64,000 bases of DNA from Candidatus Dojkabacteria bacterium (lineage in GTDB: Bacteria > Patescibacteriota > Dojkabacteria > SC72): assembly GCA_035271645.1 (NCBI GenBank), contig DATERJ010000018.1:17399-81398 (forward strand). The letters run 5' to 3'. The stretch's first letter is position 1, and every line of letters begins with the position of its first letter. The notes beneath the pieces were generated by a model, which saw nothing but the letters and a program-made list of their open reading frames with translations, was not told the origin of the DNA and ran no database searches. Shown in pieces: positions 1 to 35,113 of the stretch. The translations under genes were made by a program, and so were the position numbers.

Positions 1-1
1 T

Positions 2-1228
2 ACTGCATCAGCTAATCCTGGAGGAAGTATAACATGGACAACGAATGCTAATACTAAAGATGTTGACCAACATAATGTCACCCTCGTAGTTTGTAAATCA
101 AACTCCTTAGAAAGTAATGGGACATGTACAGCTGGAGATTGGTGTACAAGTTCACCAGCACTTTCGAACCCTTCATGTACATACAACATCCCAAGTGTAG
201 CAGCAGATGCAACTGGAATTAAGGGCTACGTATTTCTTATTGACATTCACAAAACACCACATTCAACAACCCCTACAGAAACAACCTTTGCAATTAACAA
301 TGTTGCTCCAACGGTAAGTAATGTAAAACTTAATAGTGAAGGAGCTATTACACTGACAACAAAGGCCATAAAAAATGTGCCTGTAACACTAACTGTTGAA
401 GATAATAACGGTTGTGCAACTACCGAGGTAACTTCAGTAGTTGCATATGTATACAGATCTGGTGTGGGGTCAACCAATTGTAATACTACTACACATCACA
501 ACACCAACTATTGCTACACTGCAATTGACTGTGACCAAGATATGGAATCATGTACGGGAGGTGCTTCTGCAACATACACATGCCAAGTACCTATGCAATA
601 CTATGCAGACCCAACTGTTGCAAACACTGTATTTGCAGGACAATATTGGATAGCAACTGTAACCGCGACAGATGATGATAATGCAACTGGTACAGCATCA
701 TCAACATCACAAGATGCCGTTGTAAATTCATTGCTTGCATTTGATGTTTCTGATGATCCAGTATCTATTGCTGCAGAAATTAATTATGGTTCATTAAGTA
801 TTGGACAGATAGCAGATGATGCAACACTCCCACAACGACTATATACAATCCCTACTGGTAATGTAGGGTTAGATCAAAAACATCACTCTGATGTGGGCTA
901 TATGTGTACTGACTTCAATGATACAGACCCTGATATACCTTGTGATGAGGGGACACCTATCCCAATAGCAAAACAACACTACGGTTTGGCAAATAATGTT
1001 GCCTATTCTGCAGGAACTGCACTTACAACTACTGCTGTAGAGGTTGAGCTTAATGTTCCAAAGATTAATGCAGGTACAATTACACACAAAAGTACATGGT
1101 GGGGTATTCAAATCCCATTTGGTATAATAGCTGGTACATATACTGGGCAGAATATTATAACTGCAGTAGTTGATGAAACCACTAATAGGTGGGGTTTACC
1201 AACAGGAGAAGCTTATGCTAAACCTTAA
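2..1228 (+). CDS. Secreted or surface Cys-containing protein, 5'-partial. Paralog of 2691..4484 and of the C-terminal module of 7642..12093.
   Basis: The frame is open from the window edge; the ORF track starts at the first in-frame start codon (377). Motifs shared with the paralogs: VVCK..G.C..G.WC, NPSCTY, NNVAP.VS.VKLN, VEDNNGC, AYVYRSG, NYCY, QYYADPT, WIATV.ATD, WWGI.IP. Confidence 0.6.
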   Translation, partial: TASANPGGSITWTTNANTKDVDQHNVTLVVCKSNSLESNGTCTAGDWCTSSPALSNPSCTYNIPSVAADATGIKGYVFLIDIHKTPHSTTPTETTFAINNVAPTVSNVKLNSEGAITLTTKAIKNVPVTLTVEDNNGCATTEVTSVVAYVYRSGVGSTNCNTTTHHNTNYCYTAIDCDQDMESCTGGASATYTCQVPMQYYADPTVANTVFAGQYWIATVTATDDDNATGTASSTSQDAVVNSLLAFDVSDDPVSIAAEINYGSLSIGQIADDATLPQRLYTIPTGNVGLDQKHHSDVGYMCTDFNDTDPDIPCDEGTPIPIAKQHYGLANNVAYSAGTALTTTAVEVELNVPKINAGTITHKSTWWGIQIPFGIIAGTYTGQNIITAVVDETTNRWGLPTGEAYAKP

Positions 1229-1276
1229 TTCTATATAACTAATTTATATTTAATTAATTAAACTTATATAAATAAA

Positions 1277-2626
1277 ATGAAGAACATCAAAAAAACAATA
1301 AAATCAGCACTACTTGCTGTCACACTACTACTTCTGAGCAGTGTAGTGGCACATGCTGGATTTGGTATATCACCAGCAGACTTCAATGTGGACTTCCTAA
1401 AGCCAGGTAGTACATATACAAAAACATATCTACTCTCAAGATCTGGAGATTTTGGAGAAATGAATATTGTGGTAGAACCAGACATGGGAATCGCAAATGA
1501 TTGGCTCTCATTTACACCAGGAAAATCCTTTATATTCAAGAAAGGTGCTAGAACCATGGAATTCAAAGTTACTGTAAATGTACCCATCTCAGCAGAATAC
1601 AAGGAATATCCAGGAACATTTACACTAAGAGCACTACCTTCAGATGCAGAGGTAAGAGGAGTCACAATTGCGCAGGGGTTAGAGTTAAATAGTGATATTA
1701 AGGTAACTGAAGAAGAAATCAAGAGCCTTGCAATACAAAACATCAGAGTTGAAGACACAGTTATTGGAACACCTATTGTTGTAAAATTAGTAGGAGATAA
1801 CAAGGGTAATGTCGATACTACCCCTACTCTTAAAATTGTAATTATGGACCTGCAAGACAAGGTTTTAGAAGAGCATGATATTGCAGACCTAGCAACTATT
1901 GAGGCAGGTGTAACAAAAGAGGTCTCTGCAGAGTTTGGTACTTCCTTAGAGAAAGGAGAGTACTATGCAGAAGTTGAAGTTTTTCTAGATGGTAAAGCAT
2001 TAAGAAAAGAAAAAATGGTCTTTAATATGGTTGAAGAGAAAGTTGTTACAAAAGCAGGAACAGAAGATACAGATAAGAGCAGTATTACAACATTCCTAGA
2101 AGATAACAAAGATTATCTATGGATTGTTGCACTAGCTGCACTAATCGGACTATTAGTTCTTGTCCTAATTAGTGTATTCTGGAAAGGAAGAGATAGAGAG
2201 GGGAAATCAACTGATGATCCACTATCAGTAGCAGGTGGAAGCAAGAGCTCTACAAGAGTTACGCTTTCATTGGCCTTCGGATTACTAGCTACCTTGGCAA
2301 TAATTACAAATATCTCATCGAATATTGAAGTTAAGGAAGCTATCATGCCAGATAGACAAGCAGAAGTACAAGGAACAACAGATACTATTATCAAGCCCTC
2401 ACAACCTATGTTAACTGTTGTTGAGAGTGTTGTTAGAAATAAGGAAGGATATCCTGTATATGACAGAGCTGATGAAACATCCAATGTTATCTACGAAGCA
2501 AAGGAAAATGAGCAGTTAGAGGTTGTTAGAGAATCAGGTGATTGGTATCAGGTTAAGCTTCCAACTGGTGCTATGGGTTGGGTTTCTAAATCTATTGTAA
2601 AATCTGAAACAACAAGGGAGAGGTAG
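1277..2626 (+). CDS. Membrane-anchored protein with an N-terminal signal peptide, internal TM segments and a C-terminal bacterial SH3-like domain.
   Basis: N-terminus MKNIKKTIKSALLAVTLLLLSSVVAHA looks like a signal peptide. Hydrophobic stretches WIVALAALIGLLVLVLISVFW and LSLAFGLLATLAIITNI. C-terminus YPVYDRADETSNVIYEAKENEQLEVVRESGDWYQVKLPTGAMGWVSKS resembles SH3b. Confidence 0.5.
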   Translation: MKNIKKTIKSALLAVTLLLLSSVVAHAGFGISPADFNVDFLKPGSTYTKTYLLSRSGDFGEMNIVVEPDMGIANDWLSFTPGKSFIFKKGARTMEFKVTVNVPISAEYKEYPGTFTLRALPSDAEVRGVTIAQGLELNSDIKVTEEEIKSLAIQNIRVEDTVIGTPIVVKLVGDNKGNVDTTPTLKIVIMDLQDKVLEEHDIADLATIEAGVTKEVSAEFGTSLEKGEYYAEVEVFLDGKALRKEKMVFNMVEEKVVTKAGTEDTDKSSITTFLEDNKDYLWIVALAALIGLLVLVLISVFWKGRDREGKSTDDPLSVAGGSKSSTRVTLSLAFGLLATLAIITNISSNIEVKEAIMPDRQAEVQGTTDTIIKPSQPMLTVVESVVRNKEGYPVYDRADETSNVIYEAKENEQLEVVRESGDWYQVKLPTGAMGWVSKSIVKSETTRER

Positions 2627-2690
2627 TCTTCGGACTACTTTTCCTTAACTAAGGAATAACATTATTTAACATGTACTATATAGAAACCCT

Positions 2691-4484
2691 ATGAAGTATA
2701 AAAAACATATAGCATGGGGACTTGCAATACTGATTCTTGTTGCATCTTCCTTTGCATTAATTAAAAGATTTAATACACATGCACAGACAGGTGTTACTAA
2801 GACATTTACAACCAAGGTAACTGTTGGTAATAGTGCACCTGTGTTTACAGTTGACCCTGCAGAGTCTCCAGCATCTTCGACAACAAGCCCTACTGCACCA
2901 AATACACTAATGACTTTCTCTGCTAAAGCAACAGATGCAAACAATCACGGCTACTACTTCCTTGTATGTAGTATCGTAGATACAGCAAACCCTGACAACG
3001 ACAGAGCAGTTGCAAGCCCTACTGGTGGAGCACCAAGCTGTCCAGCCACTTCAACAAAATATTGTGGAACTACCAGTGCAGTAGCGAGTGGTTCTACAGC
3101 TAGCTGTACCCGTACAACTGAGTCATCAGATCCATATGAAAACAAGTGGAATGCCTATGTCTGTGATAACTTTGCTTCAGGTTCATCGTGTTCGTTACCT
3201 AATCGAGGTAGTGGAGCTTCTGGTTCACCTTTCTATGTAAACCATGCTCCTACTTTTACAGCAATTAGCAATACTGCCAGTACAGTTGAAGATGCACAAA
3301 CACCAGGTAATAGCTACACTGTTACTTGGACAAGTACTGCCTCCGACCCAACAGATGGACACCAAGTAAAACTCCTTATCTGTAAAACTCAACAGATGTC
3401 TAATGGAGTATGTACAGGTGGAAATTGGTGTGAGAGTACACTTGCGAATTCAGATCCAACTTGCACATATACATTACCCGCAGTACCAGTTGCAGATGGG
3501 GAATACGAAGCCTATGCATACGTAGTAGATGCACATAATACACCTGCTGCGGGGGAAGGTACTAAACAAGGAAGTAAAAGTAGTTATTATGTTAAGAACG
3601 TAGCCCCTGTGGTTAGTGCTGTTAAATTGAATGCCGAAGCTTCCCCTATCACACTAGTAGCAGGTGGAACAAAGTCTGTATCCATAACGGCAGATGTTAC
3701 TGATGATAATGGTTGTTCAGCTACAGAGCTCCCTGTCACCAAAATAAAGGCATATGTTTACAGATCAGGACTTGCTAATGGGTTTAGTGATTGTGATGCA
3801 TTAGGAGATGGCAATGCCAATTACTGCTACGCTGAAATCTCATGTACTCGTGGTACATGCTCTGGAACAAAAGTACCCATCACATGTAGTGTCTCCATGC
3901 AATACTATGCTGACCCTACTGACTCAAATAATGCTGCCACCAGTTTCGCAAGTCAACATTGGGTAGCAACAGTTAAAGCAACAGACAACGGTTTCGGTAC
4001 AGGTGGAACAAACCCATTATCTCATAATGCAACCTCTACAGCAGTTGTTGAAGTTGCTTCACTAGCTGCATTCAATATTACAGCATCAATAGACTATGAC
4101 GAAGTTGCTGCAGGAGAAAGAAGTGGTAACGGCAAACTAGACAAAACAATCGTAACAACACCAACAGGTAATGTTCCAATGAATCAGTTATACTCTGGTT
4201 CAAATATGTGTACTGACTACGATGATTGTTCTACTGATGCTGGTTACACTCCTATAAATGTAAACAAACAAAAATATGCACTAGCTGCAAATACAAGCTA
4301 TGCAACAGGTGGTACAGCTCTCTCAGCAACTCCTACCCTTGTAAATATCAATGTTCCAAAAGTTACTGATGGTACGAATGTAACAACAAGAACATCATGG
4401 TGGGGTATTGAGATTCCAACTAATACACTACCAGGGGTATACAACGGTCTTAACACTATTACATCACAAGTTAAGACAACATAA
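2691..4484 (+). CDS. Secreted or anchored Cys-containing surface protein, paralog family member.
   Basis: N-terminal hydrophobic anchor (AWGLAILILVASSFALI). It shares the conserved C-terminal module with 2..1228 and 7642..12093 (LLICKTQ..GVCTGGNWC, DPTCTY, KNVAPVVSAVKLN, DDNGC, KAYVYRSG, NYCY, QYYADPTD, WVATVKATDNGFGTGGTNP, WWGIEIP). Confidence 0.6.
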   Translation: MKYKKHIAWGLAILILVASSFALIKRFNTHAQTGVTKTFTTKVTVGNSAPVFTVDPAESPASSTTSPTAPNTLMTFSAKATDANNHGYYFLVCSIVDTANPDNDRAVASPTGGAPSCPATSTKYCGTTSAVASGSTASCTRTTESSDPYENKWNAYVCDNFASGSSCSLPNRGSGASGSPFYVNHAPTFTAISNTASTVEDAQTPGNSYTVTWTSTASDPTDGHQVKLLICKTQQMSNGVCTGGNWCESTLANSDPTCTYTLPAVPVADGEYEAYAYVVDAHNTPAAGEGTKQGSKSSYYVKNVAPVVSAVKLNAEASPITLVAGGTKSVSITADVTDDNGCSATELPVTKIKAYVYRSGLANGFSDCDALGDGNANYCYAEISCTRGTCSGTKVPITCSVSMQYYADPTDSNNAATSFASQHWVATVKATDNGFGTGGTNPLSHNATSTAVVEVASLAAFNITASIDYDEVAAGERSGNGKLDKTIVTTPTGNVPMNQLYSGSNMCTDYDDCSTDAGYTPINVNKQKYALAANTSYATGGTALSATPTLVNINVPKVTDGTNVTTRTSWWGIEIPTNTLPGVYNGLNTITSQVKTT

Positions 4485-4502
4485 CACAATAGTAAAAGTG
4501 GA

Positions 4503-5576
4503 TTAAAACGAAAGTCTTGGTTCTCTATCTATATTCAAAATATCAGATGGAGTATCCAAGACTTTTTTGTTTAGGATAGAATAGTAAGCAGCAACACCTA
4601 CCATACCTGCATTATCACCCCTAAACTCCTTCTCAGGATACACATATACCAAATCATTCTTTCTAGCAACCTGACCTACCTTCCTCAAAATCTCCTCGCT
4701 ATTAAACACACCTCCACCTACAAACAAACTCTTTACCTCTGGATACTTCTCAATTGCCTTCTCAAGCTTAATAACCAAAGATTCAATAATCATATCAAGA
4801 AAACCCCTACAAAAATCATAAACCCATTCACTATCCTTTTCATACTCCTCTCTTAACTCCTTTGTCTTGTACAAAGCAGCTGTCTTTACACCAGAATAGC
4901 TAAAATTAAGATCGTTAGAATGCTTCATAGGGATTGTAAAAGTAATCTTACCCCTCTTTCCCTTCTTAGCAAACTCTGTAAGAGTAGGACCACCTGGATA
5001 ACCAAAGTTAAGCATCCTCCCCACCTTATCAAACGCCTCACCTACTGCATCATCCAATGTCTCACCTAACTTCATATACTTTCCAATCTTTTCCACATAT
5101 ATCAACTCCGTATGCTTTCCTGAAATCAGTAAACCTAAAGCAGGAAAAAGAGATTCAACATTACTCTTCACCAAACCATTACCATTAGAATTCAAAAGTA
5201 AACCAGAAAGAAGATGACCTTCCATATGATTAACCAGAACAAATGGTTTCTTGTACTTAATTGCTAAATCTTGTGCAAACTTCAAACCAACCTCTAAATC
5301 TATAGCCAAACCCGGACCATATGTACAAGCAATGTAATCCACATCCTCAATACTAACCTTAGCCTTCCTCAATGCTTCATCATATACCAAAGGTATATTC
5401 TTCTCATGTTCCCTACGAGCAATATCAGGCACAACACCACCCCACTGAGCATGAATCTCAACCTGAGAAGAAACAACAGAACTAAGTACCCTACGACCGT
5501 TCAAAAGGGCCACAGAAGTATCATCACAACTAGTATCAAATGCAATTATCAAAGGATCTTTACTCATATACCTCAA
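4503..5576 (-). CDS. tsaD: tRNA N6-adenosine threonylcarbamoyltransferase TsaD (Kae1/TsaD family).
   Basis: IIAFDTSCDDTSVALL, SQVEIHAQWGGVVPDIARREH, GPGLAIDLEVG and VNHMEGHLL are diagnostic of bacterial TsaD. It overlaps the downstream tsaC-tsaE ORF by 17 nt. Confidence 0.85.
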   Translation of the reverse strand: MRYMSKDPLIIAFDTSCDDTSVALLNGRRVLSSVVSSQVEIHAQWGGVVPDIARREHEKNIPLVYDEALRKAKVSIEDVDYIACTYGPGLAIDLEVGLKFAQDLAIKYKKPFVLVNHMEGHLLSGLLLNSNGNGLVKSNVESLFPALGLLISGKHTELIYVEKIGKYMKLGETLDDAVGEAFDKVGRMLNFGYPGGPTLTEFAKKGKRGKITFTIPMKHSNDLNFSYSGVKTAALYKTKELREEYEKDSEWVYDFCRGFLDMIIESLVIKLEKAIEKYPEVKSLFVGGGVFNSEEILRKVGQVARKNDLVYVYPEKEFRGDNAGMVGVAAYYSILNKKVLDTPSDILNIDREPRLSF

Positions 5577-6669
5577 TACTCCTTTCCTCCAAAGAAATGT
5601 ATTTAATCACAACCTTAAACATCCTTATACCCATATTATCACACAAAGCGGAAATCTCTTGAAAAAACTTATCCGCCCACTCTATCAGCACAATATCACC
5701 ATTCTCCAAATGCTCTATCAATCCAGATTTCTCTAACTCACCCTCCTCTAACCTCCAAGTATCCATATGTGCAAAGACCTTCTTCTTACCACCTCTCACA
5801 TACCCATACTCATTGATTAACGTATATGTAGGAGAATTTACAATCTCACTAACACCAAGAGACTCTCCAACACCCTTAGCAAACTGTGTCTTACCTGCAC
5901 CAAGTTCTCCGCTTAATGCAACAACAGTAGGAATATCTAAAGGAAGATACTTATCTGCGAAATCCTTAGCAAATTTAATTGTCTCTTCTTCACTCTTTGT
6001 CTCTACTTCTAATATCTTCTTGTTTTTAATCAATGCATCCTCAAACTCAACCTTACCCTGTCTTAATACTGAGAGTTCATTTAATGTAGTATCAAGAACT
6101 GTAGATGGTTGATTCTTAGGTAACTCACCTGCATCTAAAAAGAGACCTATCAAATCAAAACTTTTCTTAGGTAAATCTTTAATTAACTGATTAATACTAT
6201 ATGGTGCTGACCTATATGACATATTTGCTGACGTAGCAGTAATTGGCTTACCAAACTTTTTAATTAACTCTAATGTAAAATCATAGTCAGGATATCTAAT
6301 ACCCACAGCTCCTTGTTGAGAAACTACTGGTGGCAAAAGATTACCTTTACTCATTGATATTACTGTAATTGGTCCTGGTAGATAGTTTTTGTAAAGATTC
6401 TCAGCCATCTCATTAATCTCTACATATTCTTCAGCCATCTCTTTATCTGATACTGCAATAGATATCGGTTTAGAACCTCTTAATTTCTTGTATTCCATAA
6501 TCTTCTTTAATGCCTCTGAGTTAGTAGCATCACCTCCTAATCCATAACATGTCTCCGTTGGATATACAATTAACCCACCATCTTTTAAGACTTCAATGGC
6601 TTGTTTAATTGCTTCCTCTTTATTTTTAATTACATCTATTCTTTTCATGGTATAATGGATATTATACAA
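5560..6669 (-). CDS. Fusion protein: TsaC/YrdC (Sua5 N-domain) fused to the TsaE P-loop ATPase.
   Basis: N-terminal half has YrdC motifs (LKDGGLIVYPTETCYGLGGDATN, LPGPITVI, GIRYPD, PITATSANMS). C-terminal half has the TsaE/YjeE Walker A ALSGELGAGKTQFAKGVG plus VNSPTYTLINEY. Confidence 0.75.
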   Translation of the reverse strand: MYNIHYTMKRIDVIKNKEEAIKQAIEVLKDGGLIVYPTETCYGLGGDATNSEALKKIMEYKKLRGSKPISIAVSDKEMAEEYVEINEMAENLYKNYLPGPITVISMSKGNLLPPVVSQQGAVGIRYPDYDFTLELIKKFGKPITATSANMSYRSAPYSINQLIKDLPKKSFDLIGLFLDAGELPKNQPSTVLDTTLNELSVLRQGKVEFEDALIKNKKILEVETKSEEETIKFAKDFADKYLPLDIPTVVALSGELGAGKTQFAKGVGESLGVSEIVNSPTYTLINEYGYVRGGKKKVFAHMDTWRLEEGELEKSGLIEHLENGDIVLIEWADKFFQEISALCDNMGIRMFKVVIKYISLEERSIEVYE

Positions 6670-6715
6670 GGGATATGGCTATATATCCATATTTTTACAT
6701 TATTACAAAACTGCT

Positions 6716-7177
6716 ATGATAGAGAATTATGAGAAAAACAGTATAGATATTGAGACTGTTTTACCTAGTAGAACAGTCTACAGTAACAATGGAATCGATT
6801 ATACTGTATATACAGAAGACCTTTCTCCTAAGGCAACAGACAGAGCTTTTGGGTATACCAACCCTTTAAATGAGGAAGAAATATTTTTGTTTCAGATAAT
6901 GGTAGAGGGTAATGAATATGCACCTAGCAATATTAAACTTCTAATGGAATTACCTCTTGAAGATGATGATTTTGTAAGATATCTGATTGATAAAGGGGAG
7001 AATCTTAAGTTAGTAGTAGAAGAAGATAGAAAGAAAGGAGAGTTAAGAAATTGGAGAAGTGTTTTTGAAGTTGATGGAGACAGATTTACACTAACCTATA
7101 TGGAAGATACAAAAGATGAGGGGGTAAGTCTCCACGACAACTATTTGAAAAGGATTGAGAACAGAAAAAGTAACTAA
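6716..7177 (+). CDS. Hypothetical acidic protein.
   Basis: ORF of 153 aa with no recognised motif. Confidence 0.35.
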   Translation: MIENYEKNSIDIETVLPSRTVYSNNGIDYTVYTEDLSPKATDRAFGYTNPLNEEEIFLFQIMVEGNEYAPSNIKLLMELPLEDDDFVRYLIDKGENLKLVVEEDRKKGELRNWRSVFEVDGDRFTLTYMEDTKDEGVSLHDNYLKRIENRKSN

Positions 7178-7194
7178 ATTGTTATTTTACCCAT

Positions 7195-7515
7195 ATGGAA
7201 ACATTACATTTAACACAAGATACATTCCAGAAAGAGATTAAAGAGTTTGAAGGAGTTGCTTTAGTCGACTTCTGGGCTCCTTGGTGTGGTCCTTGTCAGA
7301 TATTAGGTCCTGTCATTGAAGAACTCACTAAAGAATTTGAAGATGGTGTAAAGATATGTAAAGTAAATGTGGATGAGGAAGGATCATTGGCACAGGAATA
7401 TGAGATTATGAGTATTCCAACAGTATATATTTTCAAAAATGGAGAGATAGTAGATACATTGATTGGTCTACAAAGCAAAGATGCGTACAAAGAAGCTATA
7501 GAGAAATATCTTTAG
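7195..7515 (+). CDS. trxA: Thioredoxin.
   Basis: WCGPC active site (FWAPWCGPCQILGP), thioredoxin-sized at 106 aa. Confidence 0.85.
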   Translation: METLHLTQDTFQKEIKEFEGVALVDFWAPWCGPCQILGPVIEELTKEFEDGVKICKVNVDEEGSLAQEYEIMSIPTVYIFKNGEIVDTLIGLQSKDAYKEAIEKYL

Positions 7516-7641
7516 AGAAACTCTAACCCAATGAAACTAATAGCTGTTCCTTACCAAGGAGAAGGCTGTTTAGTGTTGTTTCTATTGTGAAAAACGTATA
7601 TATTATAGTAACGATGGATTCCTATGGATTAATGTAACTGA

Positions 7642-10600
7642 ATGATTAAGAAAAATAATAGAAAAAAGTTCTTGTTAAGTACTGCTAGTCTTTTTTTGGC
7701 TTTGGGATTGATTTTCTCCGCTGTACAGGATAGTAAGAGAATGGATGATGGAAATAAGAATATCGTTAGCATTAGTGAAGAAGGAGAGGTAAAAGGGGGA
7801 GAGATAATGGCAAACTGTTCATACTACCCATTATGTGATTTTCCAGCAGGACCAGGGGGATGTTATCAAGCAGGTGGATCTTGTGGACCAGGAGAATTCT
7901 CCTGCCCTACAAATCAAAGTGTTTGTTGTGACAGAGGTAGTTGTGGTTCATGTAATCCTTGTACGGGTGTTTATCAAAGTAGTAATAATGGGTGTCCCTC
8001 TACTAGTAAGTCCTGTACCAGATATGACTGTCGTGGGAGTTGCGGCACAACCACTCTCACATGTTATCTCATTCAATACTCCATCAGCTATTCTGCAGGA
8101 AATGGAGGCTCTATCTCAGGGGCAACTAATCAATCCGTGTGTTACAATCAGAGTGGATCACAGGTTACTGCTGTTGCAAATAGTGGATATACCTTCTCCC
8201 AATGGAGTGATGGGAATACATCACCATCGAGAAGTGATGTGGCTACAGGGAATAAAAGTTTTACTGCCAGTTTTACTCAAAGCCCCAACAATCCACCAAC
8301 CACACCTACATCACTACTAACTAATGGACAAACCAATCCTACAAATGTAGATACAGCCACCCCATACTTTAGTGCGATATTTAATGACCCTGATAGTGGA
8401 GATACAGGTGTACACTATCAAATTCAAGTAAATACGAACTCCTCTTTTACTGGGACAACGATGTGGGATAGTGGAAAAACCGCTATGACCTCTACAGCCA
8501 ATGGTTCTAGGAGTCCCAATATTACATACGCAGGTACCAACCTCCCTTTAGATGGAACTATGTACTACTGGAGAATAAAGTTTTGGGATAATAATGGAGC
8601 TGATAGTCCTTGGTCTGCTACTGCACAATTTACTATGCGTTACACAATACCAGCTCCTTCTGGTCTTCTTACTAATGGGCAAACTAATCCAACAGGAGTA
8701 ACTACGCCATACCCATATTTTAGTGCAATATATAATAACTACTCAGGAAGAGGTAATGCTACACATGCACACCTACAAGTTTACTTAGGTAGTGTCCTTC
8801 CAGAAAACCAAGTTTGGAACTTCAATGATGCAATACCCAATGTAGCACCGGGGAACAGAAGTTCAAATATTACATACGGAGGAGATCCACTACCACAAAA
8901 TGGCGCTACATATATTTGGAGAATTAGATTCTGGGATGGGGTGGCCTACTATAGTGAGTGGCAACATGGACAATTCACCATGAATAGTGGAAGTAGTCCT
9001 ACTGCTCCTACTGGCCTTCTAACTAATGGACAAACTAATCCTGTAGGTGTAACTACACCACAACCATACTTTAGTGCAATATTTAATGATCCTAATAGTG
9101 GAGATACTGCTGTGTATTATCAAATCTTTGTTGTTTATTATGATGGTTTTACTTATCAAACTCAATGGGATAGTGGGAAAACTGCTATGACCCCCACCCC
9201 CGTTGGCTCAAGGAGTCCCAATATCACATACAATGGACCAACATTACAAGCAGGTAGAGAATATAACTGGCAAATAAAATTCTGGGATAATTCTGGATTA
9301 GAAGGTGTTTTCTCTAACATTTCTTCAAATCGTTTTACTATGAACACCCCACCTACCGCTCCAACAGCACCATTAACAAATGGGATGACAAACCCAACAG
9401 ATGTAGCCTCCACACCCTACTTTAGTGCTATATTTAACGATGCTGATAGTACAGATACAGGTGTATATTATCAAATCCAAGTCAACACTAATTCCTCCTT
9501 CTCGGGAACAACTATGTGGGATAGTGGAAAAACCGCCATGACAGCCACAAACCCTAGTTCTAGAAGTCCCAATATTAACTATGCTGGGAATACCCTCTCA
9601 TACAATGGAACAACATACTATTGGAGAATTAGGTTCTGGGATAATCATGGGGTAGTTAGTCCCTACTCTTCTACTGCTCAATTCACTACAGTCATATCAG
9701 GCGCTGCGCCCACATCACTTCTAACCAATGGACAAACTAACCCGACAAATGTAGTACCTTCACCAGCACCATACTTTAGTGCAATATTTAATCACAGTAA
9801 TCCAAGTCGTAGAGCAGTACACTATCAGATTATAATGACAGTAAGTGGTATGCAAGTTTGGAATAGTGGAAAAACCTCTATGACCTCTACCGCCCCTGGT
9901 AGTAGATGTCCTAATATTACATACAATGGCTCTCATACCTTAGACCATAATGGAAATGTATACAAATGGACAATTGTCTTCTGGGATGACCTAGGGGTGC
10001 AGACTGCAACCTCAGCAGAAGCACAGTTTACTATGAACAGACGCCCTACTCCACCTACTGGACTACTGACAGAGGGACAAACAAATCCCTCAGGTGTTAC
10101 CGATACAACACCTGAATTTAGTGCGATATATAACAATCCTACTGGAACACCTGCTGTATACTACCAAATTCAAGTAAACGAAAAAGCTAACTTTACTGGT
10201 ACTATGAAATGGGATAGTGGGAAAACTTCAATGGCTTCATTAAGTAATGGCTCAAGAAGCCCAGATATTGAGTATGCTGGTTCTACTCTTACTCAGAATG
10301 GACAAACCTACTTCTGGAAGATTAGATTCTGGGATAATCTGGGAGGTGATGGTGAGTGGTCAGCTGTAAACTACTTCACTATGCACAATAATGCATATAC
10401 CTTTACAATCAGCTCAGAGGGGACACAGGTCAATCCCGTAACAATGGATCGAATAGAGGGAGGTGATGAATTATATATGGGAGGAGTATTTAGTTTTACG
10501 GTGTATAATATTAATCCTGCATTCTCACAGCCGGGAATAACTAGTATTACATTACAAAGAACTTGGACCTCTGGGAGTGGAGATATTGACAGAGCTATTC

Positions 10601-12093
10601 TCCTTTCTACTACAACCGCTTCTGGACAAACCTGTCCTACAACTCTGCCTAGTAGTACTTCATACTTTGGTGGCGCTTCAGACCCATATGGCTCTGGCTC
10701 TAGCGTAACTATAAATGGAAGTCTTGGTGTTGCTCCTGGTCAACAGGGATGTATATATGTGATATATTCATTCGCCCCTAAGAGTGTTTCAGAAGGTAGT
10801 GTATTAGATTTTCAGGTTACAAACTTTACAGCCAACTTCACGGGAACCAAATTTGGACTCCCTGCAAACATAACCGGTACTACAACATTCATACCTACTC
10901 CTAAACCACCTACTTTTACGAACATTACAAACAATGGACCGAAAGATCCTGGGGGAACAATAACATTTAGCACTACATCCTCTGATCCAGATGGTGACAA
11001 TGTGAAATTGGTAGTCTGTAAAACACAAGGTGTTACAGGAACAGCCTGTGATGGTGGCGATGATGATACATACTGTACAAGTAGCTTTGTTGGCTCTAAC
11101 CCATCATGTTCATGGGATATACCATCAGTATATCCTGATGGATCATACTATGCATACCCATACATCTTTGATAGTACTAACTTACCCGCAGATAGCATAC
11201 GACAAGGTGCTGCTCATGCATTTACTGTAAACAATGTAGCACCCTTACCTACAAGCATTAGTATAAATGGAGGAGATGATATTACTCTGGTTACAGGAAC
11301 TACCAAATCCGTAACTTTAAATGTTAGTGTTAGAGATAACAACGGATGTGGTAATGATGAGATTGATACTGTCAAAGCGTATATGTACCGATCTGGAATT
11401 ACTGGTGGATATAGCTCTTGCGATACATTAGATGAGAATAATGCTAACAATTGCTATCCAGAAATACCCTGTACATTTGTGAGTTGTACTGGAACTCAAT
11501 CAGAATTACCCAATATTGCACAATATACATGTAATACAAGTCTCCAATACTATGCTGATCCTACTGACAGTTACTCTCCTTTTCCAGATGAGAGCTGGAT
11601 TGCAACAGTTAAGGCTACTGATAATGGTTTCGGCCTAGGTGGAACAAACCCATTAACAGGGACATGGGGCATTACTAATGGAGTTGATGTAAATTCTCTG
11701 TTGGCATTTAATATTACCCAAGAGTTAAACTACGGAGTACTTCTTGCAGGGCAGATTATCTCACCTCTTGCATCAACAACAACAATTACTTCTGCTGGTA
11801 ATGTAGCTTTGAACCATTCTGTCTCTGGTGATGATATGTGTGAAGACTATCCTGCATGTGAGGGGAGTAAAATTCTTGTTGACCAACAGAAGTATGCTCT
11901 TAATGCTTCAACGGAATGGAAAGATGGGACAAAGCTAAGTGCCACTCCTACAAATGTCTTCACCAACCTACCCAAACAGACTACATCTACACCAACTTCG
12001 GTAAATATCTGGTGGGGGATATTAGCTCCAACAGGAACACCACCCAAGCAATATATAGGAAAAAATACTGTGACTTCTTCTGTTGCCCACTAA
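7642..12093 (+). CDS. Giant (1483 aa) cell-surface protein. Domain order: N-terminal anchor, Cys-rich region, Listeria-Bacteroides-type repeat, six FN3-like tandem repeats, then the C-terminal paralog module.
   Basis: N-terminus FLLSTASLFLALGLIFSAV. Cys-rich CSYYPLCDFPAGPGGCYQAGGSCGPGEFSCP...CCDRGSCGSCNPC. YSISYSAGNGG...GYTFSQWSDG resembles the InlB B-/Flg_new repeat. Repeats carry the motif LLTNGQTNPT.V...PYFSAIFNDPDSGDT..YYQIQVNTNSSF.GTTMWDSGKTAMT...GSRSPNITYAG..L..NGT.YYWRIRFWDN.G..S.WS..AQFT, which resembles the rhamnosidase-type FN3 'W.IRFWD..G..S.WS' motif. The C-terminal module is shared with 2..1228 and 2691..4484. Confidence 0.7.
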   Translation: MIKKNNRKKFLLSTASLFLALGLIFSAVQDSKRMDDGNKNIVSISEEGEVKGGEIMANCSYYPLCDFPAGPGGCYQAGGSCGPGEFSCPTNQSVCCDRGSCGSCNPCTGVYQSSNNGCPSTSKSCTRYDCRGSCGTTTLTCYLIQYSISYSAGNGGSISGATNQSVCYNQSGSQVTAVANSGYTFSQWSDGNTSPSRSDVATGNKSFTASFTQSPNNPPTTPTSLLTNGQTNPTNVDTATPYFSAIFNDPDSGDTGVHYQIQVNTNSSFTGTTMWDSGKTAMTSTANGSRSPNITYAGTNLPLDGTMYYWRIKFWDNNGADSPWSATAQFTMRYTIPAPSGLLTNGQTNPTGVTTPYPYFSAIYNNYSGRGNATHAHLQVYLGSVLPENQVWNFNDAIPNVAPGNRSSNITYGGDPLPQNGATYIWRIRFWDGVAYYSEWQHGQFTMNSGSSPTAPTGLLTNGQTNPVGVTTPQPYFSAIFNDPNSGDTAVYYQIFVVYYDGFTYQTQWDSGKTAMTPTPVGSRSPNITYNGPTLQAGREYNWQIKFWDNSGLEGVFSNISSNRFTMNTPPTAPTAPLTNGMTNPTDVASTPYFSAIFNDADSTDTGVYYQIQVNTNSSFSGTTMWDSGKTAMTATNPSSRSPNINYAGNTLSYNGTTYYWRIRFWDNHGVVSPYSSTAQFTTVISGAAPTSLLTNGQTNPTNVVPSPAPYFSAIFNHSNPSRRAVHYQIIMTVSGMQVWNSGKTSMTSTAPGSRCPNITYNGSHTLDHNGNVYKWTIVFWDDLGVQTATSAEAQFTMNRRPTPPTGLLTEGQTNPSGVTDTTPEFSAIYNNPTGTPAVYYQIQVNEKANFTGTMKWDSGKTSMASLSNGSRSPDIEYAGSTLTQNGQTYFWKIRFWDNLGGDGEWSAVNYFTMHNNAYTFTISSEGTQVNPVTMDRIEGGDELYMGGVFSFTVYNINPAFSQPGITSITLQRTWTSGSGDIDRAILLSTTTASGQTCPTTLPSSTSYFGGASDPYGSGSSVTINGSLGVAPGQQGCIYVIYSFAPKSVSEGSVLDFQVTNFTANFTGTKFGLPANITGTTTFIPTPKPPTFTNITNNGPKDPGGTITFSTTSSDPDGDNVKLVVCKTQGVTGTACDGGDDDTYCTSSFVGSNPSCSWDIPSVYPDGSYYAYPYIFDSTNLPADSIRQGAAHAFTVNNVAPLPTSISINGGDDITLVTGTTKSVTLNVSVRDNNGCGNDEIDTVKAYMYRSGITGGYSSCDTLDENNANNCYPEIPCTFVSCTGTQSELPNIAQYTCNTSLQYYADPTDSYSPFPDESWIATVKATDNGFGLGGTNPLTGTWGITNGVDVNSLLAFNITQELNYGVLLAGQIISPLASTTTITSAGNVALNHSVSGDDMCEDYPACEGSKILVDQQKYALNASTEWKDGTKLSATPTNVFTNLPKQTTSTPTSVNIWWGILAPTGTPPKQYIGKNTVTSSVAH
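8291..10383 (+). repeat. Six tandem in-frame ~349-nt (~116-aa) repeats inside the giant surface-protein gene.
   Basis: Repeat units start with SLLTNGQTNPTNV, GLLTNGQTNPTGV, GLLTNGQTNPVGV, APLTNGMTNPTDV, SLLTNGQTNPTNV and GLLTEGQTNPSGV. Units 1 and 4 share a near-identical stretch VNTNSSF(T/S)GTTMWDSGKTAMT; the DNA 'atgtgggatagtggaaaaaccgc.atgac' recurs at ~8460 and ~9515. Confidence 0.6.
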
Positions 12094-12143: not shown

Positions 12144-12220
12144 GGAGTGGTAGCTCAATTGGTTAGAGCATCGCACTGTCACTGCGAAGGTTGCGGGTTC
12201 GAGCCCCGTCCATTCCGCCA
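12144..12220 (+). tRNA. tRNA-Asp (anticodon GTC), CCA encoded.
   Basis: Cloverleaf read directly: acceptor GGAGTGG/CCATTCC, D-arm GCTC-AATTGGTT-AGAGC, anticodon stem TCGCA/TGCGA with loop CTGTCAC (GTC), T-arm GCGGG-TTCGAGC-CCCGT, discriminator G plus CCA. Coordinates ±1-2 nt. Confidence 0.8.
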
Positions 12221-23247: not shown

Positions 23248-24213
23248 TTGTCACAAAAGAAGAATGTAAATATAAGGTTACCAAAGCAAACTAAAGGTAG
23301 ACACACCATATATATTGATGAGTCAGGAACAGCATCATTAAAAGACAAAGAAAAGTTCTTTATACTCACAGGTGTAATTGCTACCAACCACAGTTTTAAT
23401 GATGTTGAAGAATTCTATTTTAACCTAAAAAGAAAATACTTTGGGTATATTCAACATCTACATTCTGTTGAGCTATTTAGTGAAAATACAAAGTATGTAC
23501 GAAAAAGCAAAGCTCAATTGTTTAAGATAAAGAAATATAGAAAAAGATATATACAAGAATTAGCATACTTTTTAGATACTGTACCATTTGTATTTTTAAC
23601 AATCATAGTTGATAAAGAGAGAATGTTAAAAAGTCTATCACCAGTTAAAATAGATCATCCTTGGGCTACCACAATAGGAGAAGCAAAGAAAATATTTACA
23701 GAGACACACAACGATGAAACTCCTTTTATAGATGCAAAAATTGCAGATGTTATAGATACTATTAATAAACACAAAATACTCCCAACCGACTATTTCAGGC
23801 CACTAAAAATTGCATATAGAGAATTGTTAGAACAATATTTTAAAAACTACCAATACAATATTTATACCACAGGATCAAAGATGCAGATATGTGTAGAATC
23901 ATCTGAGTACCAATCACGAATTTTAAAATACACAGAAGAATTTCTATTGGAAACAGATAGGGTGCAACCGAAACCTAAGAGAACAAAATTTTCGAGAAGA
24001 CTAAAAAACAGTATGTACAGTCTATCCTTTCCTAATAAAAAAGCTAAATTTCTTGGTTTAGAGATAGCAGATATTATCTCATATGGTTATTATCTTTCAT
24101 CACATCATAGAAGGTGTAAGAATGAACTCTATAAAGATATTTGGAAAGTTATTGAGAAAAGAAAGAAGGATATTGAACAGAAATATAATATGAGGTGTGT
24201 AGTTAAGATCTAA
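23248..24213 (+). CDS. DUF3800-family protein.
   Basis: N-terminal HTIYIDESGTAS...FFILTGVI motif characteristic of DUF3800. A second DUF3800 gene is at 35114..35740. Confidence 0.5.
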   Translation: MSQKKNVNIRLPKQTKGRHTIYIDESGTASLKDKEKFFILTGVIATNHSFNDVEEFYFNLKRKYFGYIQHLHSVELFSENTKYVRKSKAQLFKIKKYRKRYIQELAYFLDTVPFVFLTIIVDKERMLKSLSPVKIDHPWATTIGEAKKIFTETHNDETPFIDAKIADVIDTINKHKILPTDYFRPLKIAYRELLEQYFKNYQYNIYTTGSKMQICVESSEYQSRILKYTEEFLLETDRVQPKPKRTKFSRRLKNSMYSLSFPNKKAKFLGLEIADIISYGYYLSSHHRRCKNELYKDIWKVIEKRKKDIEQKYNMRCVVKI

Positions 24214-26280: not shown

Positions 26281-29200
26281 TTACAAAATTTCATAATTAT
26301 TTTGTGCAAGAGTCATTATTTTCTCAATAAGATCCCATATGTCTTCATTACTTAAATCAACCCCTCTACCTATTTTCACCACATCGTAAAGATAATCATC
26401 TAATTCATTCCTCATCATCCTTTTCTTCTCAGAGTTTATCTGCCAATCAATTACTGCTTCTCTTTTTAGAATCCCAAATATTTCCAAACAACTAACGATG
26501 ATACAATCCTCATCTAGCCCATGCTTTTTAAAATCTCCCCTTAGATTCCTATAAAAGATATCAACCCCTTCATTTGATTTTATTATATCTGGTAAATCTT
26601 CATCCTCTTTGTTAAGTACTTGTCTACTAAGTTCCTTTGCCTGTTTCAAAGCCTCAATATCAGCCAATTTCTTCTCCCTCATTGCCTGAAGCAAAGCATC
26701 TATCTTGTCAGAGAATTTTCTGTAAAACTTTGGATCTTTCCCCATCCTCTCAGAAACTTCTTTCTGTGTTTGTGAGAGAATCGCAGCCGCTTTAGATTTA
26801 TCTGAACCCAAATCCTCTACAGCCTCCTTAAAAGCTTCCTCATCTGTTATTGAAATCTGTGTTGTTAGTAACTCCGCTTCTTCTGCTTTAATATTTTTAT
26901 CCAAAATATTAATCAAGGCCTGTTTGTATTTCTTAAAATCGGGGGCATCAGAGTATCTAATACTGGCTGTTTTCCTAAGATTTGTATATTTCTTAAGATC
27001 CAACTTAAACATATCAATCTTGTCAAAACTGTCTACAAACTCTTTAAGAATAATACACTCATTAAAGATTCTGATAAAAGCATTTAAATCCTCATAGAAT
27101 CCCTTCCTTACCTGCTCATCTTCTAAATGCTCTAAGTATGCCTCATCATCTTCAGGAACATCTTTGAAAGTATCATATAATTTTTCATACTGTGCTTCTA
27201 ACTCCTCTATCTTCTCATCAACATCAATCAAAGTCCCTTTAACATCCTCGTCATCATAGTTACCAAATAAATCCATAGCCGTTTTAAGATTTTTTGCATT
27301 TTCAGAGTAGTCTATGATATATCCTGCTGTTTTCGGTAAGACATCATTTTCAAACAAACGATTTACTCTAGCTATTGCTTGAAGTAGGTTATGATCCTTC
27401 AGTTCTCTGGCTAAATACAAAACTGTGTTTCTCGGAGCATCAAAACCAGTAAGTAGTTTATGAACAACTATCAAAATTTCAACACCATCTTCATTATATT
27501 TAAAACTATCTATAACTTCTCGTTCATAAGATTCTAAACTTTGATATTTACCTTTTATCTCTCTCAGGTATTCTTCAACCTCTTTCTTATGACTATCCTC
27601 ATAACTACTAATTTCATTTTCATCTGATATTACTAATGCAGTATTTATATCTGATTCATTCTGGAAATATCTTTGGAATAATGTTGCTGCATATTTAGAA
27701 GGTGCAACAATCTGAGCTTTAAGTCCAGTTCCTTTTAGGTGCTTGTTAAAATGCTCCTTGATATCATACCCTATCTCAACAATCCTCGCAGGTGTTTCCT
27801 GCATAGCCTTTGTTTCGATCTCTCTCTGTATATCTCGCATGGTAAAGTTATCCTTTTTTAATTCTTCCTCCAATCGTGCTACCTGTTTATCAATCTCCTT
27901 TTCATCCTGTCGCAAATCAACATATCGACCTTCATAAATCAAAGGAAGAACAATACCGTCATTTAAAGCATCATCTATTGTATATCTATCTATAAATCTG
28001 CCAAACTGATTCTCAGATTTCTTTTCCTTAAGAATTGGAGTACCTGTAAAACCAATGTAACAAGCATTAGGTATAACTCTATTCATCTCTAGGTTAGCTT
28101 CTCCTCCCTGAGATCTATGTACCTCATCTATTAACACAAATATATTTTTATCCTTATCTACAAATCCAGCTCGTATGTCTTTTGCTGCTTGGAACTTGAA
28201 TACTAATGTTGTAATCACATCTGGGGTTTTCTCCTTAATCTTTTTTAATAAATCTTTCCCACTTTTCGCTTTCTTTATCTCTTTCTTAAGACCTGCATTC
28301 TCAAAAGTTTCTTTGATTTGCTGATCTAAATCTCTTCTGTCTGTGACAATAAAGATTCTTGGATTCTCTATCTCAGGATCTTCAATTAAGGCTTTGACAA
28401 ACATAACCATTGTTAAAGATTTACCTGAACCTTGTGTTTGCCAAAGAATACCTCCCTCTCTTCTTTCTCCATGTTCTGTTTTCTCTATATTCCTTATCCT
28501 ATTCAATGCTCTCTTGATTGCAAAGAACTGTTGGTATCTCATAACTTTCTTCACACCAGCATCATAAAGTATGTGATTCTTAGAGATATCTAACAATCTC
28601 TCTTTTCTTAACATACCATATACTCCTCTATCTTGTTCAGAAACTTCTCTGTTAGTTTTTTGTTGATGACCATATGTTTGTCCATTTAAATCTTTCAATA
28701 TTTGAGTGTAAAGGGAGTTGTCTATCTCTTTTGATATAACTCTTGTTATTTCATCATCAAACTCCTTCTTAAATTGTTTTCTGTTCTTCCATTCCTCTTC
28801 AGCAATATCTCTTTCCTGCCATTTTGCATAGAAATTGTTTGGTGTTCCTGTTGTTCCATATCTAAAATCTATTTTGTTTGATGCTATTAAAAGCTGAGGG
28901 TAGATAAAGAGTTTAGGACATCTATCTGGACTCTGATTTCTATTCTGTTGAGTTATTGCGAACTCTACTTCCTTGGAAGATTTTTTGTTTTCAATAACAA
29001 CAAAGGGTATACCATTAACAAATATAACTATGTCTGGTCTAATTGTTGATTTACCTGTAGCTTCAAATTCGACTATAAAGGAGAAGTCATTGTTTTCTAT
29101 ATTATCGAAATCTATAAATCTGAAACTTTTTGATTCATATTTACCATTGTGGAAAACTTTTATTGTTTTCCCTCCTTTTTTAGGCATTATTGTTTGATAT

Positions 29201-29475
29201 ATCTTTTTAGATGTATCTATTATTCCTTCCAAAGGAATATTTTCGAGTTCTTCTATAGCTTCTATTATATTTTTATCACTAAAGATTTCTTCTGTTGCAT
29301 TATTTATTCTCTTTAATGATTCAAATGCTGTGTCTTTGAGTATGAACTTATTAGTATCTCCTCTTCTTTCTTCCATTACCTCATTTACAGGTATGTATCT
29401 GTAACCCATGTTTACTAACATTTCTACAAATGGTAGTTGTGATTGTTTTACTTCATCAAAATCTATATCTGTCAT
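26281..29475 (-). CDS. hsdR: Type I restriction enzyme R subunit.
   Basis: 1064 aa. Helicase motif I ILWQTQGSGKSLTMV, motif II VLIDEVHRS, and the N-terminal nuclease region with IVIFVNGIPFVVIENKK (PD-(D/E)xK). Confidence 0.9.
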   Translation of the reverse strand: MTDIDFDEVKQSQLPFVEMLVNMGYRYIPVNEVMEERRGDTNKFILKDTAFESLKRINNATEEIFSDKNIIEAIEELENIPLEGIIDTSKKIYQTIMPKKGGKTIKVFHNGKYESKSFRFIDFDNIENNDFSFIVEFEATGKSTIRPDIVIFVNGIPFVVIENKKSSKEVEFAITQQNRNQSPDRCPKLFIYPQLLIASNKIDFRYGTTGTPNNFYAKWQERDIAEEEWKNRKQFKKEFDDEITRVISKEIDNSLYTQILKDLNGQTYGHQQKTNREVSEQDRGVYGMLRKERLLDISKNHILYDAGVKKVMRYQQFFAIKRALNRIRNIEKTEHGERREGGILWQTQGSGKSLTMVMFVKALIEDPEIENPRIFIVTDRRDLDQQIKETFENAGLKKEIKKAKSGKDLLKKIKEKTPDVITTLVFKFQAAKDIRAGFVDKDKNIFVLIDEVHRSQGGEANLEMNRVIPNACYIGFTGTPILKEKKSENQFGRFIDRYTIDDALNDGIVLPLIYEGRYVDLRQDEKEIDKQVARLEEELKKDNFTMRDIQREIETKAMQETPARIVEIGYDIKEHFNKHLKGTGLKAQIVAPSKYAATLFQRYFQNESDINTALVISDENEISSYEDSHKKEVEEYLREIKGKYQSLESYEREVIDSFKYNEDGVEILIVVHKLLTGFDAPRNTVLYLARELKDHNLLQAIARVNRLFENDVLPKTAGYIIDYSENAKNLKTAMDLFGNYDDEDVKGTLIDVDEKIEELEAQYEKLYDTFKDVPEDDEAYLEHLEDEQVRKGFYEDLNAFIRIFNECIILKEFVDSFDKIDMFKLDLKKYTNLRKTASIRYSDAPDFKKYKQALINILDKNIKAEEAELLTTQISITDEEAFKEAVEDLGSDKSKAAAILSQTQKEVSERMGKDPKFYRKFSDKIDALLQAMREKKLADIEALKQAKELSRQVLNKEDEDLPDIIKSNEGVDIFYRNLRGDFKKHGLDEDCIIVSCLEIFGILKREAVIDWQINSEKKRMMRNELDDYLYDVVKIGRGVDLSNEDIWDLIEKIMTLAQNNYEIL

Positions 29476-29480
29476 ATTCC

Positions 29481-31822: not shown

Positions 31823-31823
31823 C

Positions 31824-33341: not shown

Positions 33342-33350
33342 TTTAATTTT

Positions 33351-34981: not shown

Positions 34982-35113
34982 AGTTAGAGTATATATTATT
35001 TCTATACAACACTCACCTAAAATATGGTATAATGTATATAGAGTGATTTAGTGTCGAATTGTTGCCATTATGGTATGCGTTTCTGAGAAATCAGAATAGG
35101 CACTAAATCCATT

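Follow-up and report, generated by a model that had tools for sequence, protein, structure and literature searches.

Patescibacteria, or candidate phyla radiation (CPR) bacteria, account for a large share of bacterial diversity and mostly live attached to other cells; to our knowledge, that attachment is largely unexplained except for type IV pili and for the Pam pili, which were reported in 2026. Here we describe a group of genes in a 64-kb window (the whole stretch of DNA that was analysed, whose positions are used as coordinates throughout unless a locus is named) from the genome of Candidatus Dojkabacteria, a member of the CPR. Three co-directional plus-strand genes, A, B and C, all lie inside the first 12 kb of the window and end with the same two-domain module, D3-D4, and a gene for a membrane protein, the partner, is located between A and B. 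The kind of system that we propose for them, in which proteins are displayed non-covalently at the surface or donor-strand fibres are built with a membrane-anchored helper of tandem immunoglobulin (Ig) domains, is already known.

In CPR bacteria, Pam pili comprise the pilins PamA, PamB and PamE, the chaperones PamC and PamD, an anchor (PamR) and a tip protein (PamT) (Troman et al., bioRxiv 10.64898/2026.03.03.709456). PamA and PamB are represented by the entries WP_260763287.1 and WP_260763280.1 and by the PDB structures 25PZ and 25QA. As described in that report, the pilins are two-domain Ig-fold proteins that leave the cell through the Sec route, contain paired cysteines and polymerise through donor-strand exchange; each subunit has a beta-sandwich N-terminal domain, a linker strand and a truncated Ig-like C-terminal domain, and its structural relatives are the chaperone-usher pilins. 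PamC and PamD resemble PapD and FimC, PamR resembles RbmA, and these proteins each combine a signal peptide and two beta-domains with a C-terminal transmembrane (TM) helix; PamR is predicted to insert its N-terminal strand into a pilin. Homologs occur mainly in Saccharimonadia and Microgenomatia, next to genes for ATP synthase, CorB and MFS (bioRxiv 10.64898/2026.03.03.709456). The WxL clusters of Firmicutes encode small WxL proteins, large ones whose WxL domain lies at the C-terminus, and WxLIP, which has a signal peptide, DUF916, DUF3324 and a TM segment (Hassan et al. 2023, PMC10599100). Finally, surface-layer (S-layer) proteins of six-Ig and three-Ig families have been predicted for Patescibacteria (bioRxiv 10.1101/2024.05.28.596244; Kuroda et al. 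2024, PMC10936435).

We conclude that A, B and C encode Sec-exported, disulfide-stabilised, all-beta proteins of a Patescibacteria-wide family that is defined by D3-D4. Our preferred interpretation, held tentatively and at somewhat short of even chances, is that D3-D4 serves in assembly or anchoring and is captured at the cell surface by the partner, probably via beta-strand complementation. As far as the searched literature shows, the D3-D4 family, its partner and the rule that the module is C-terminal are unannotated and undescribed.

An exhaustive hmmsearch of 1.84 billion representative sequences with a D3-D4 profile (hits clustered at 50% identity) placed the module in 1,228 clusters at E<=1e-3 and in 964 at E<=1e-10. 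In 145 of the best 150 matches D3-D4 ended no more than 15 residues from the C-terminus (median 5), and protein lengths ranged from 183 to 4,157 amino acids. Minimal members consisted of a signal peptide and D3-D4 alone (about 310 amino acids), while the payloads of 32 large members from fetched loci included Laminin_G_3 (in 9), DUF2341 (in 7) and Ig_Rha78A_N (in 5), as well as Flg_new, FN3, PKD, PATR, LVIVD, FG-GAP, CBM96 and NHL; PG_binding_1 was found in 2 of the 32. Gene C encodes one of these payload-bearing large members. An initial annotation of the DNA had viewed the module as part of an adhesin; it behaves instead as a dedicated C-terminal assembly or anchoring unit, present in ~1,200 clusters with very different payloads.

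That annotation described three paralogs within 12 kb that share a C-terminal module of ~450 amino acids, a set of motifs and a Cys pattern, in a small-genome bacterium. The paralogy is borne out (43–45% identity, E about 1e-90 to 1e-112), and the organism, as a member of the CPR, agrees with the guess; the length of the module had to be revised, as the part common to A, B and C is ~410 amino acids (D2-D4) and A is homologous to B end to end. Gene B (2691..4484, plus strand; 597 amino acids, HKM20226.1) encodes an N-terminal helix or signal (2691-2786) followed by D1 (2796-3248, residues 36-186), D2 (3249-3599, residues 187-303), D3 (3600-4046) and D4 (4047-4481). Gene A (2..1228, plus strand) is cut by the left window edge, leaving the last 408 amino acids of the 611-residue protein HKM20224.1, with domain assignments of a partial D2 (2-301), D3 (302-718) and D4 (719-1225); the full-length gene is present at L001:6703-8538, on a contig of the same organism that is 100% identical over gene B. 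Gene C (7642..12093, plus strand) encodes a giant paralog of 1483 amino acids (HKM20231.1), whose shared module (10906..12090) comprises a D2-type Cys-Ig domain (10906-11235), D3 (11236-11682) and D4 (11683-12090). The B product matches that of A at 43% identity along its whole length (E about 1e-112) and that of C at 45% across 417 amino acids (E=2e-92). The shared motifs recur with small variations (VVCK/LICK..C..G.WC, NPSCTY/DPTCTY/NPSCSW, NNVAP, DNNGC, AYVYRSG, NYCY, QYYADPTD, WIATVKATDNGFG and WWGI.IP), and 18 cysteines occupy matching positions in A and B, corresponding to 9 conserved Cys pairs. The proteins are acidic (isoelectric points 4.5–5.2) and rich in Thr, Ala and Ser. The database entries HKM20224.1, HKM20226.1 and HKM20231.1, from a Ca. 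Dojkabacteria metagenome-assembled genome (MAG), are identical to these products and were all deposited as 'hypothetical protein'; consistent with the earlier remark that the shared module has no characterised function, profile and sequence searches gave no match to it in Pfam, NCBIfam or PDB.

Each of the three proteins has a single N-terminal hydrophobic segment and no further TM segment, as had been supposed from the window, although the segment of A lies outside it and was seen in L001. Putative cleavage sites follow the segment, being AxA-like in A (TEA|Q) and B (THA|Q) and FSA|V in C; judged from sequence, these N-termini are putative export signals that may be cleaved or retained as an anchor. 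The class III signal peptide of type IV and Tad pilins (G|F/M...E5) is absent from the N-termini of A, B and C. The three proteins contain no LPXTG motif or C-terminal TM segment, and a family search found no SLH, CWB2 or PGBD/PG_binding domain in them, which makes covalent or classical anchoring unlikely. In Paceibacteria members of the family the N-terminal hydrophobic region is conserved (AGKI.I.T.L.G..VF..AF.FD; L079:6935-8788 and the family alignment), whereas it is variable in Dojkabacteria. One Paceibacteria member gave a weak match there to Tad (TadE/G-like, PF13400; E=0.0017), with no Glu at +5. The conserved region may be kept as an anchor instead of being cleaved off as a signal.

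The open reading frame (ORF) at 1277-2626, which went unmentioned in the initial annotation, is the key to interpreting these genes. It lies on the plus strand and encodes the partner, a protein of 449 amino acids (HKM20225.1, deposited as 'SH3 domain-containing protein') with a signal peptide (1277-1357, AHA|GFGISP), an ectodomain of about 250 amino acids with weak E-set/Ig signals to CARDB, NEW3 and DUF7490 (1358-2122), two TM helices (TM1, 2123-2191; TM2, 2252-2320) joined by a short basic loop, and an SH3b domain of a type known from cell-wall hydrolases (2444-2599). The topology defined by the signal peptide and two TM helices places SH3b outside the cell. Across lineages the partner keeps a constant architecture of signal peptide, ~250-residue ectodomain and TM helix near residue 285, to which Dojkabacteria add the second TM helix and SH3b; elsewhere it is shorter (about 300–390 amino acids) and ends with the one TM helix and a short tail. 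A variant of ~626 amino acids (L011:2508-4391, L015:4194-6074, L028:1563-3443) has six predicted TM segments, not two, between the signal peptide and SH3b. The mature N-terminus, GFGISP, is among the most conserved stretches of 43 partner homologs (G30 is invariant, and A27 and P33 are conserved in >90%), and the conservation of the residues directly behind the predicted signal-peptidase site (A|GFGISP) points to a function of the mature N-terminus, possibly as a donor strand. Partner homologs yielded no family name other than SH3.

A scan of species-representative genomes recovered 77 family loci, with full-length matches at 28–47% identity, from Dojkabacteria and from MAGs labelled Lloyd-, Sung-, Falkow-, Staskawicz-, Kaiser-, Shapiro-, Peregrini- and Doudnabacteria, Minisyncoccia and others; no Saccharimonadia taxon labels occurred among the sampled members. 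A partner homolog was the very next same-strand gene after the family gene in 47 of the 51 loci with enough downstream sequence (median gap 41 nucleotides), and these loci span Dojkabacteria, Paceibacteria-type and ABY1-type lineages and others. Without a functional link, such consistent adjacency in classes so far apart would be difficult to account for.

The same adjacency argues against reading A, B and C as independent host-binding adhesins, with the shared module as the binding head and a neighbouring membrane protein of unrelated function, an explanation that we consider quite unlikely. Its appeal lies in the payload types (lectin-like, FN3 and InlB repeat), which are typical of adhesins, in the episymbiotic habit of CPR bacteria, and in the fact that the conserved module would be distal if the N-terminal helix were an uncleaved anchor. 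The module is nevertheless conserved phylum-wide though the hosts of these lineages differ widely, no domain is hypervariable, and the module keeps its strict C-terminal position irrespective of the payload. The initial proposal of diversified host-attachment adhesins survives in part: gene C bears adhesin-type payload domains, and a role in host attachment is plausible for payload-bearing members such as C, whereas A and B belong to a syntenic cassette with the partner (47 of 51) and are evenly conserved.

A constant C-terminal unit, interchangeable payloads, module-only proteins and a near-obligatory membrane partner together follow the logic of non-covalent surface assembly or anchoring. 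We propose capture of D3-D4 by the partner on the basis of the Pam-like architecture of the latter, its conserved mature N-terminus and the same kinds of structural neighbours of D3-D4 (described below), and we infer from these features a D3-D4–partner contact, strand complementation or polymerisation, a surface location and a role in attachment. In such a mechanism D3-D4 would be captured at the surface by the membrane partner, probably by strand complementation, as has been suggested for PamC/D and PamR and, by analogy, for WxLIP and WxL. The four-domain A and B proteins would form a constitutive base, either a fibre or a coat. The C protein, as a payload-bearing member of tip or adhesin type, would use its D3-D4 to mount a long stalk, made up of six Ig repeats, one InlB-type repeat and a Cys knot, by which a host or a particle could be bound, and the SH3b tail of the Dojkabacteria partner would tie the complex to peptidoglycan.

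The predicted fold is compatible with such a role. AlphaFold2, run with an 86-sequence alignment, modelled the gene B product as an N-terminal helix (residues 4-32) and an all-beta chain of four beta-sandwich domains (predicted local distance difference test, pLDDT, 81.9). D1 and D2 are homologous copies of one Cys-rich domain (hhalign probability 98.5%, E=1.7e-15), while profile-profile comparison found D3 and D4 unrelated to D1/D2 and to one another. Modelled alone, the 290 amino acids of D3-D4, with 4 Cys pairs, formed a rigid two-domain unit (pLDDT 94.2, predicted template modelling score 0.86). A Foldseek search of the PDB with the whole chain returned tandem-Ig proteins of generic kinds only (integrin legs, complement MG domains and antibodies; template modelling (TM) score 0.24 at best). 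The search with D3-D4 returned weak neighbours (best E=1e-4, TM score 0.38 at best), the top ones being donor-strand pilus subunits and tip adhesins (CfaE, CfaB and CsuE) together with RbmA, with PapD and WxLIP lower.

Neither of these Foldseek searches returned an enzyme or catalytic fold, in keeping with the surface-protein reading of the initial annotation. An enzyme or nutrient-binding protein, such as a glycan-active or substrate-capture domain, might be considered because the last beta-hairpin weakly matches an Ig-like N-terminal domain found in GH123 glycosidases and because Rha78A-type Ig repeats occur in rhamnosidases. The GH123 and Rha78A matches are however to accessory Ig domains rather than catalytic ones, the weak hairpin matches falling far below cut-offs, and since no catalytic families or folds were found by family searches or by Foldseek against the PDB, we regard this explanation as extremely improbable.

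Among Dojkabacteria orthologs all four domains of the chain are evenly conserved (1.25–1.45 bits), the N-terminal helix alone is variable and no hypervariable region is present; the C-terminal hairpin (WWGI.IP..G.Y.G.N) is highly conserved and the linker only moderately so. This even conservation is among several features that fit an S-layer-type coat, in which A and B would be lattice protomers, the partner a membrane stalk (compare SlaA/SlaB of Sulfolobales) and C-type members would be inserted via D3-D4. The cassette is core, phylum-wide and syntenic, the chains are acidic, Ig-like and rich in Thr, Ser and Ala, a TM-anchored partner accompanies the secreted Ig chain, the EA1 S-layer protein is among the weak whole-chain structural matches, and CPR cells have been reported to carry S-layers, with Ig-chain S-layer proteins predicted for Patescibacteria. 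Bacterial S-layer proteins are, on the other hand, usually poor in Cys, compared with 18 Cys here, and a D3-D4 placed at the end of proteins of up to 4,157 amino acids is more what one would expect of an anchoring or assembly tag than of a lattice protomer. The published CPR candidates, which bear a PGBD, also appear to be a different family, as no PGBD is present here: the candidate GMX57981.1 was traced to PMX_810_sub_00350 (2079 nucleotides, 692 amino acids, PGBD-bearing), whose best UniRef match is 29% identical. We set aside a link of our family to those candidates, which are probably another family, set apart by their description (PGBD and signal peptide). Taken together, we judge an S-layer-type coat to be unlikely.

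The preferred reading, capture of D3-D4 by the partner, can also be extended. CPR bacteria are thought to be monoderm, and the family and its partner might constitute a phylum-wide, usher-less donor-strand fibre system of chaperone-usher-like type that extends Pam pili from Saccharimonadia and Microgenomatia to Dojkabacteria, Paceibacteria and ABY1, in which hundreds of payload giants with lectin, FN3, PKD or beta-propeller domains would act as interchangeable tip adhesins that fit onto a single conserved assembly unit, in a general host-attachment apparatus; this stronger version strikes us as doubtful, though worth entertaining.

Gene order around the family differs between lineages. Dojkabacteria keep the order enolase, family gene, partner, family gene, tsaD, tsaC/E, thioredoxin and (where present) the giant. 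In the window, a single ORF at 5560-6669 (minus strand) fuses TsaC/Sua5 (PF01300) with TsaE (PF02367) and overlaps the start of tsaD (4503-5576, minus strand) by 17 nucleotides; the fusion is kept in all Dojkabacteria loci examined. At L045:1640-3292 and 3358-5010, two family genes of 551 residues each stand in tandem; they share their N-terminal sequence and match gene B with identical statistics, and look like the product of a recent tandem duplication, or possibly of an assembly error. We also considered A-type and B-type genes as ancient orthologous groups and rejected this division, which holds among close relatives only.

Paceibacteria-type clusters are co-directional and contain a large family member, a 240-residue protein, an FN3-rich protein, an ATP-binding cassette (ABC) ATPase, a MacB_PCD/FtsX permease, a core family gene, the partner, a protein with DUF4215, Big_6 and dockerin, and cohesin-domain proteins. 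Clusters of the Paceibacteria and ABY1 type, found at L079:70-15269 and also in L054, L061, L070 and others, suggest a cohesin-dockerin surface assembly in non-cellulolytic CPR bacteria. In about 16 loci the permease and the ABC ATPase (about 441 amino acids) are encoded immediately upstream of the family gene. Together with the strict C-terminal position of D3-D4, this arrangement could mean that D3-D4 is a secretion or sorting domain, similar to the C-terminal domain of the type IX secretion system, that serves a MacB-type ABC transporter, with the partner as an attachment or processing factor. The additional genes of these clusters, including the MacB transporter, are however absent from the 64-kb window, and no such transporter is found near Dojkabacteria loci; moreover, N-terminal Sec-type signals are present, and 290 amino acids with four conserved disulfides far exceed known sorting tags. 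We thus view a sorting function as very unlikely. The MacB genes tabulated by Kuroda et al., considered as a route to expression of the family, were set aside as belonging to a different system with DUF5666 neighbours.

Several observations weigh against capture of D3-D4 by the partner in a Pam-like manner. D3-D4 matches pilus subunits poorly in structure, with generic tandem-Ig proteins reaching similar scores; in the AlphaFold2 model D4 appears complete and confident, with no sign of a missing strand. Co-evolution support for the putative contact from a mirror-tree analysis is weak and inconsistent: overall, partial r was 0.29 for D3-D4 against the partner and 0.10 for D1-D2 against the partner, and this order reverses in short-partner loci. 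The link to Pam is an analogy of described features rather than the outcome of a sequence comparison. Furthermore, the core subunits here carry two extra Cys-rich domains (D1-D2), and each cassette has one partner rather than two chaperones and an anchor. The neighbours here are enolase and tsaD or, in Paceibacteria, a MacB ABC transporter and cohesin/dockerin genes, as opposed to ATP synthase, CorB and MFS for Pam, and the family is found in Dojkabacteria and in Paceibacteria-type and ABY1-type lineages, while Pam homologs are mainly from Saccharimonadia and Microgenomatia.

The giant encoded by gene C illustrates how a payload is built onto the module. A putative signal peptide (7642..7722, residues 1-27, ...LIFSA|VQD; hydrophobic segment at residues 10-28) is followed by a Cys-rich region without a family match (7804..8076, residues 55-145) that holds 15 of the 16 Cys of residues 59-167, by an InlB B-repeat or Listeria-Bacteroides repeat (Flg_new_2; 8077..8283, residues 146-214, E=3.5e-8) and by six tandem Ig/FN3-like repeats (PF25788, Ig_Rha78A_N; 8305..10386, E=8e-74) with a period of about 117 amino acids, in which the motif LT[NE]G[QM]TNP recurs at residues 226, 343, 460, 578, 694 and 809. 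All three of these additions had been picked out at first reading, as a Cys-rich knot region, a Listeria-Bacteroides-type repeat and six FN3-like repeats, and are borne out. A middle region (10387..10905, residues 916-1088), which matches neither any family nor D1-D4, leads into the shared module; all of these features are on the plus strand. The possibility that the middle region and the Cys knot are D1-D4 homologs was rejected for lack of a profile match.

The DNA around these genes shows several further features. G+C content reaches 0.38–0.41 where surface-protein genes dominate (1-4 kb and 8-12 kb), versus about 0.30–0.35 elsewhere; because synteny is conserved, this rise fits the composition of proteins rich in Thr, Ala, Ser and Gly rather than a foreign origin. 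The leaders of the partner (1255-1276), B (2670-2690) and C (7620-7641) are AT-rich and have no recognisable Shine-Dalgarno sequence, and a consensus scan for promoters and terminators gave nothing beyond shuffled expectation. Between the partner and B, a hairpin (GTAGTC-TTCG-GACTAC) followed by TTTT at 2623-2642 overlaps the partner stop codon; missing from the list of the consensus scan, it may be a weak terminator or attenuator. A tRNA-Asp(GTC) gene (12144-12220, plus strand) lies directly downstream of gene C. Elsewhere in the window we observed a Type I restriction-modification locus (26281-33929, minus strand) encoding HsdR, HsdS, HsdM and a second short HsdS, in which a gene with SduA_C, a Shedu-type nuclease C-terminal domain (30680-31822), is inserted between hsdS and hsdM; a DUF3800-IX RNA motif of Rfam (35045-35113, plus strand, 53.8 bits), about 11 kb from a DUF3800 gene (23248-24213, plus strand); and a tRNA-Glu(CTC) gene (58177-58251, minus strand).

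These results turn a local trio of paralogs into a testable phylum-wide unit, composed of a C-terminal module (~1,200 clusters), a near-obligatory membrane partner and a catalogue of payloads. If the contact between module and partner is real, it would provide a rule by which the surface-displayed proteome of any CPR genome, with its candidate host-binding proteins, could be found, and a handle for pull-downs, labelling and genetic disruption in the few cultivable CPR bacteria.

We have not filed the family under Pam, WxL, classical chaperone-usher, S-layer, LPXTG or type IV pilin families, and its likeness to each of the nearest ones is partial. It shares with the predicted Patescibacteria S-layer proteins secreted Ig-domain chains, a wide distribution across CPR classes and a proposed role in the envelope; those candidates have a peptidoglycan-binding domain and a canonical signal peptide, whereas the family here lacks PGBD and has a membrane partner. 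The best, albeit weak, structural neighbours of D3-D4 belong to chaperone-usher pili (Pap/Fim, CFA/I and Csu), whose subunits also have a conserved C-terminal strand motif (G.Y.G..T), and the combination of payloads with D3-D4 recalls the tip adhesins FimH, PapG and CfaE, in which a variable N-terminal binding domain is joined to a constant C-terminal pilin domain. No usher-like gene was present in the clustered neighbourhoods, and no Pfam match to PapD_N or PapD_C occurred among the 25 families, out of 119, that are matched by most of the 43 partner homologs.

The resemblance to WxL clusters is one of organisation: minimal module-only proteins, large proteins with a C-terminal module and variable N-terminal binding domains, a co-encoded partner with a signal peptide, an Ig-like ectodomain and a TM segment (WxLIP having two Ig-like domains and a C-terminal TM segment), and attachment that is non-covalent, as we propose here. 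D3-D4 differs as a Cys-rich two-domain unit of 290 amino acids from another phylum. The WxL domain (PF13731) had no match in A, B or C at E<=1, nor in the 32 large members; DUF916 and DUF3324 were absent from the same 25 of 119 families and from the Pfam annotation of 44 database matches; and the Foldseek comparison of D3-D4 with WxLIP was insignificant (probability 0.16–0.35).

Pam pili are likewise specific to CPR bacteria and offer parallels in Sec-type export, Ig-fold subunits, paired cysteines and a two-domain beta unit, here D3-D4. In their layout, the signal peptide, Ig-like ectodomain and TM helix of the partner resemble the architecture described for PamC, PamD and PamR, apart from the SH3b carried by the Dojkabacteria protein, and RbmA and PapD are among the structural relatives in both cases, the matches of D3-D4 being weak. 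By analogy with the Pam proteins as described, we therefore suggest that the family 'works like' Pam and WxL systems rather than being a member of either.

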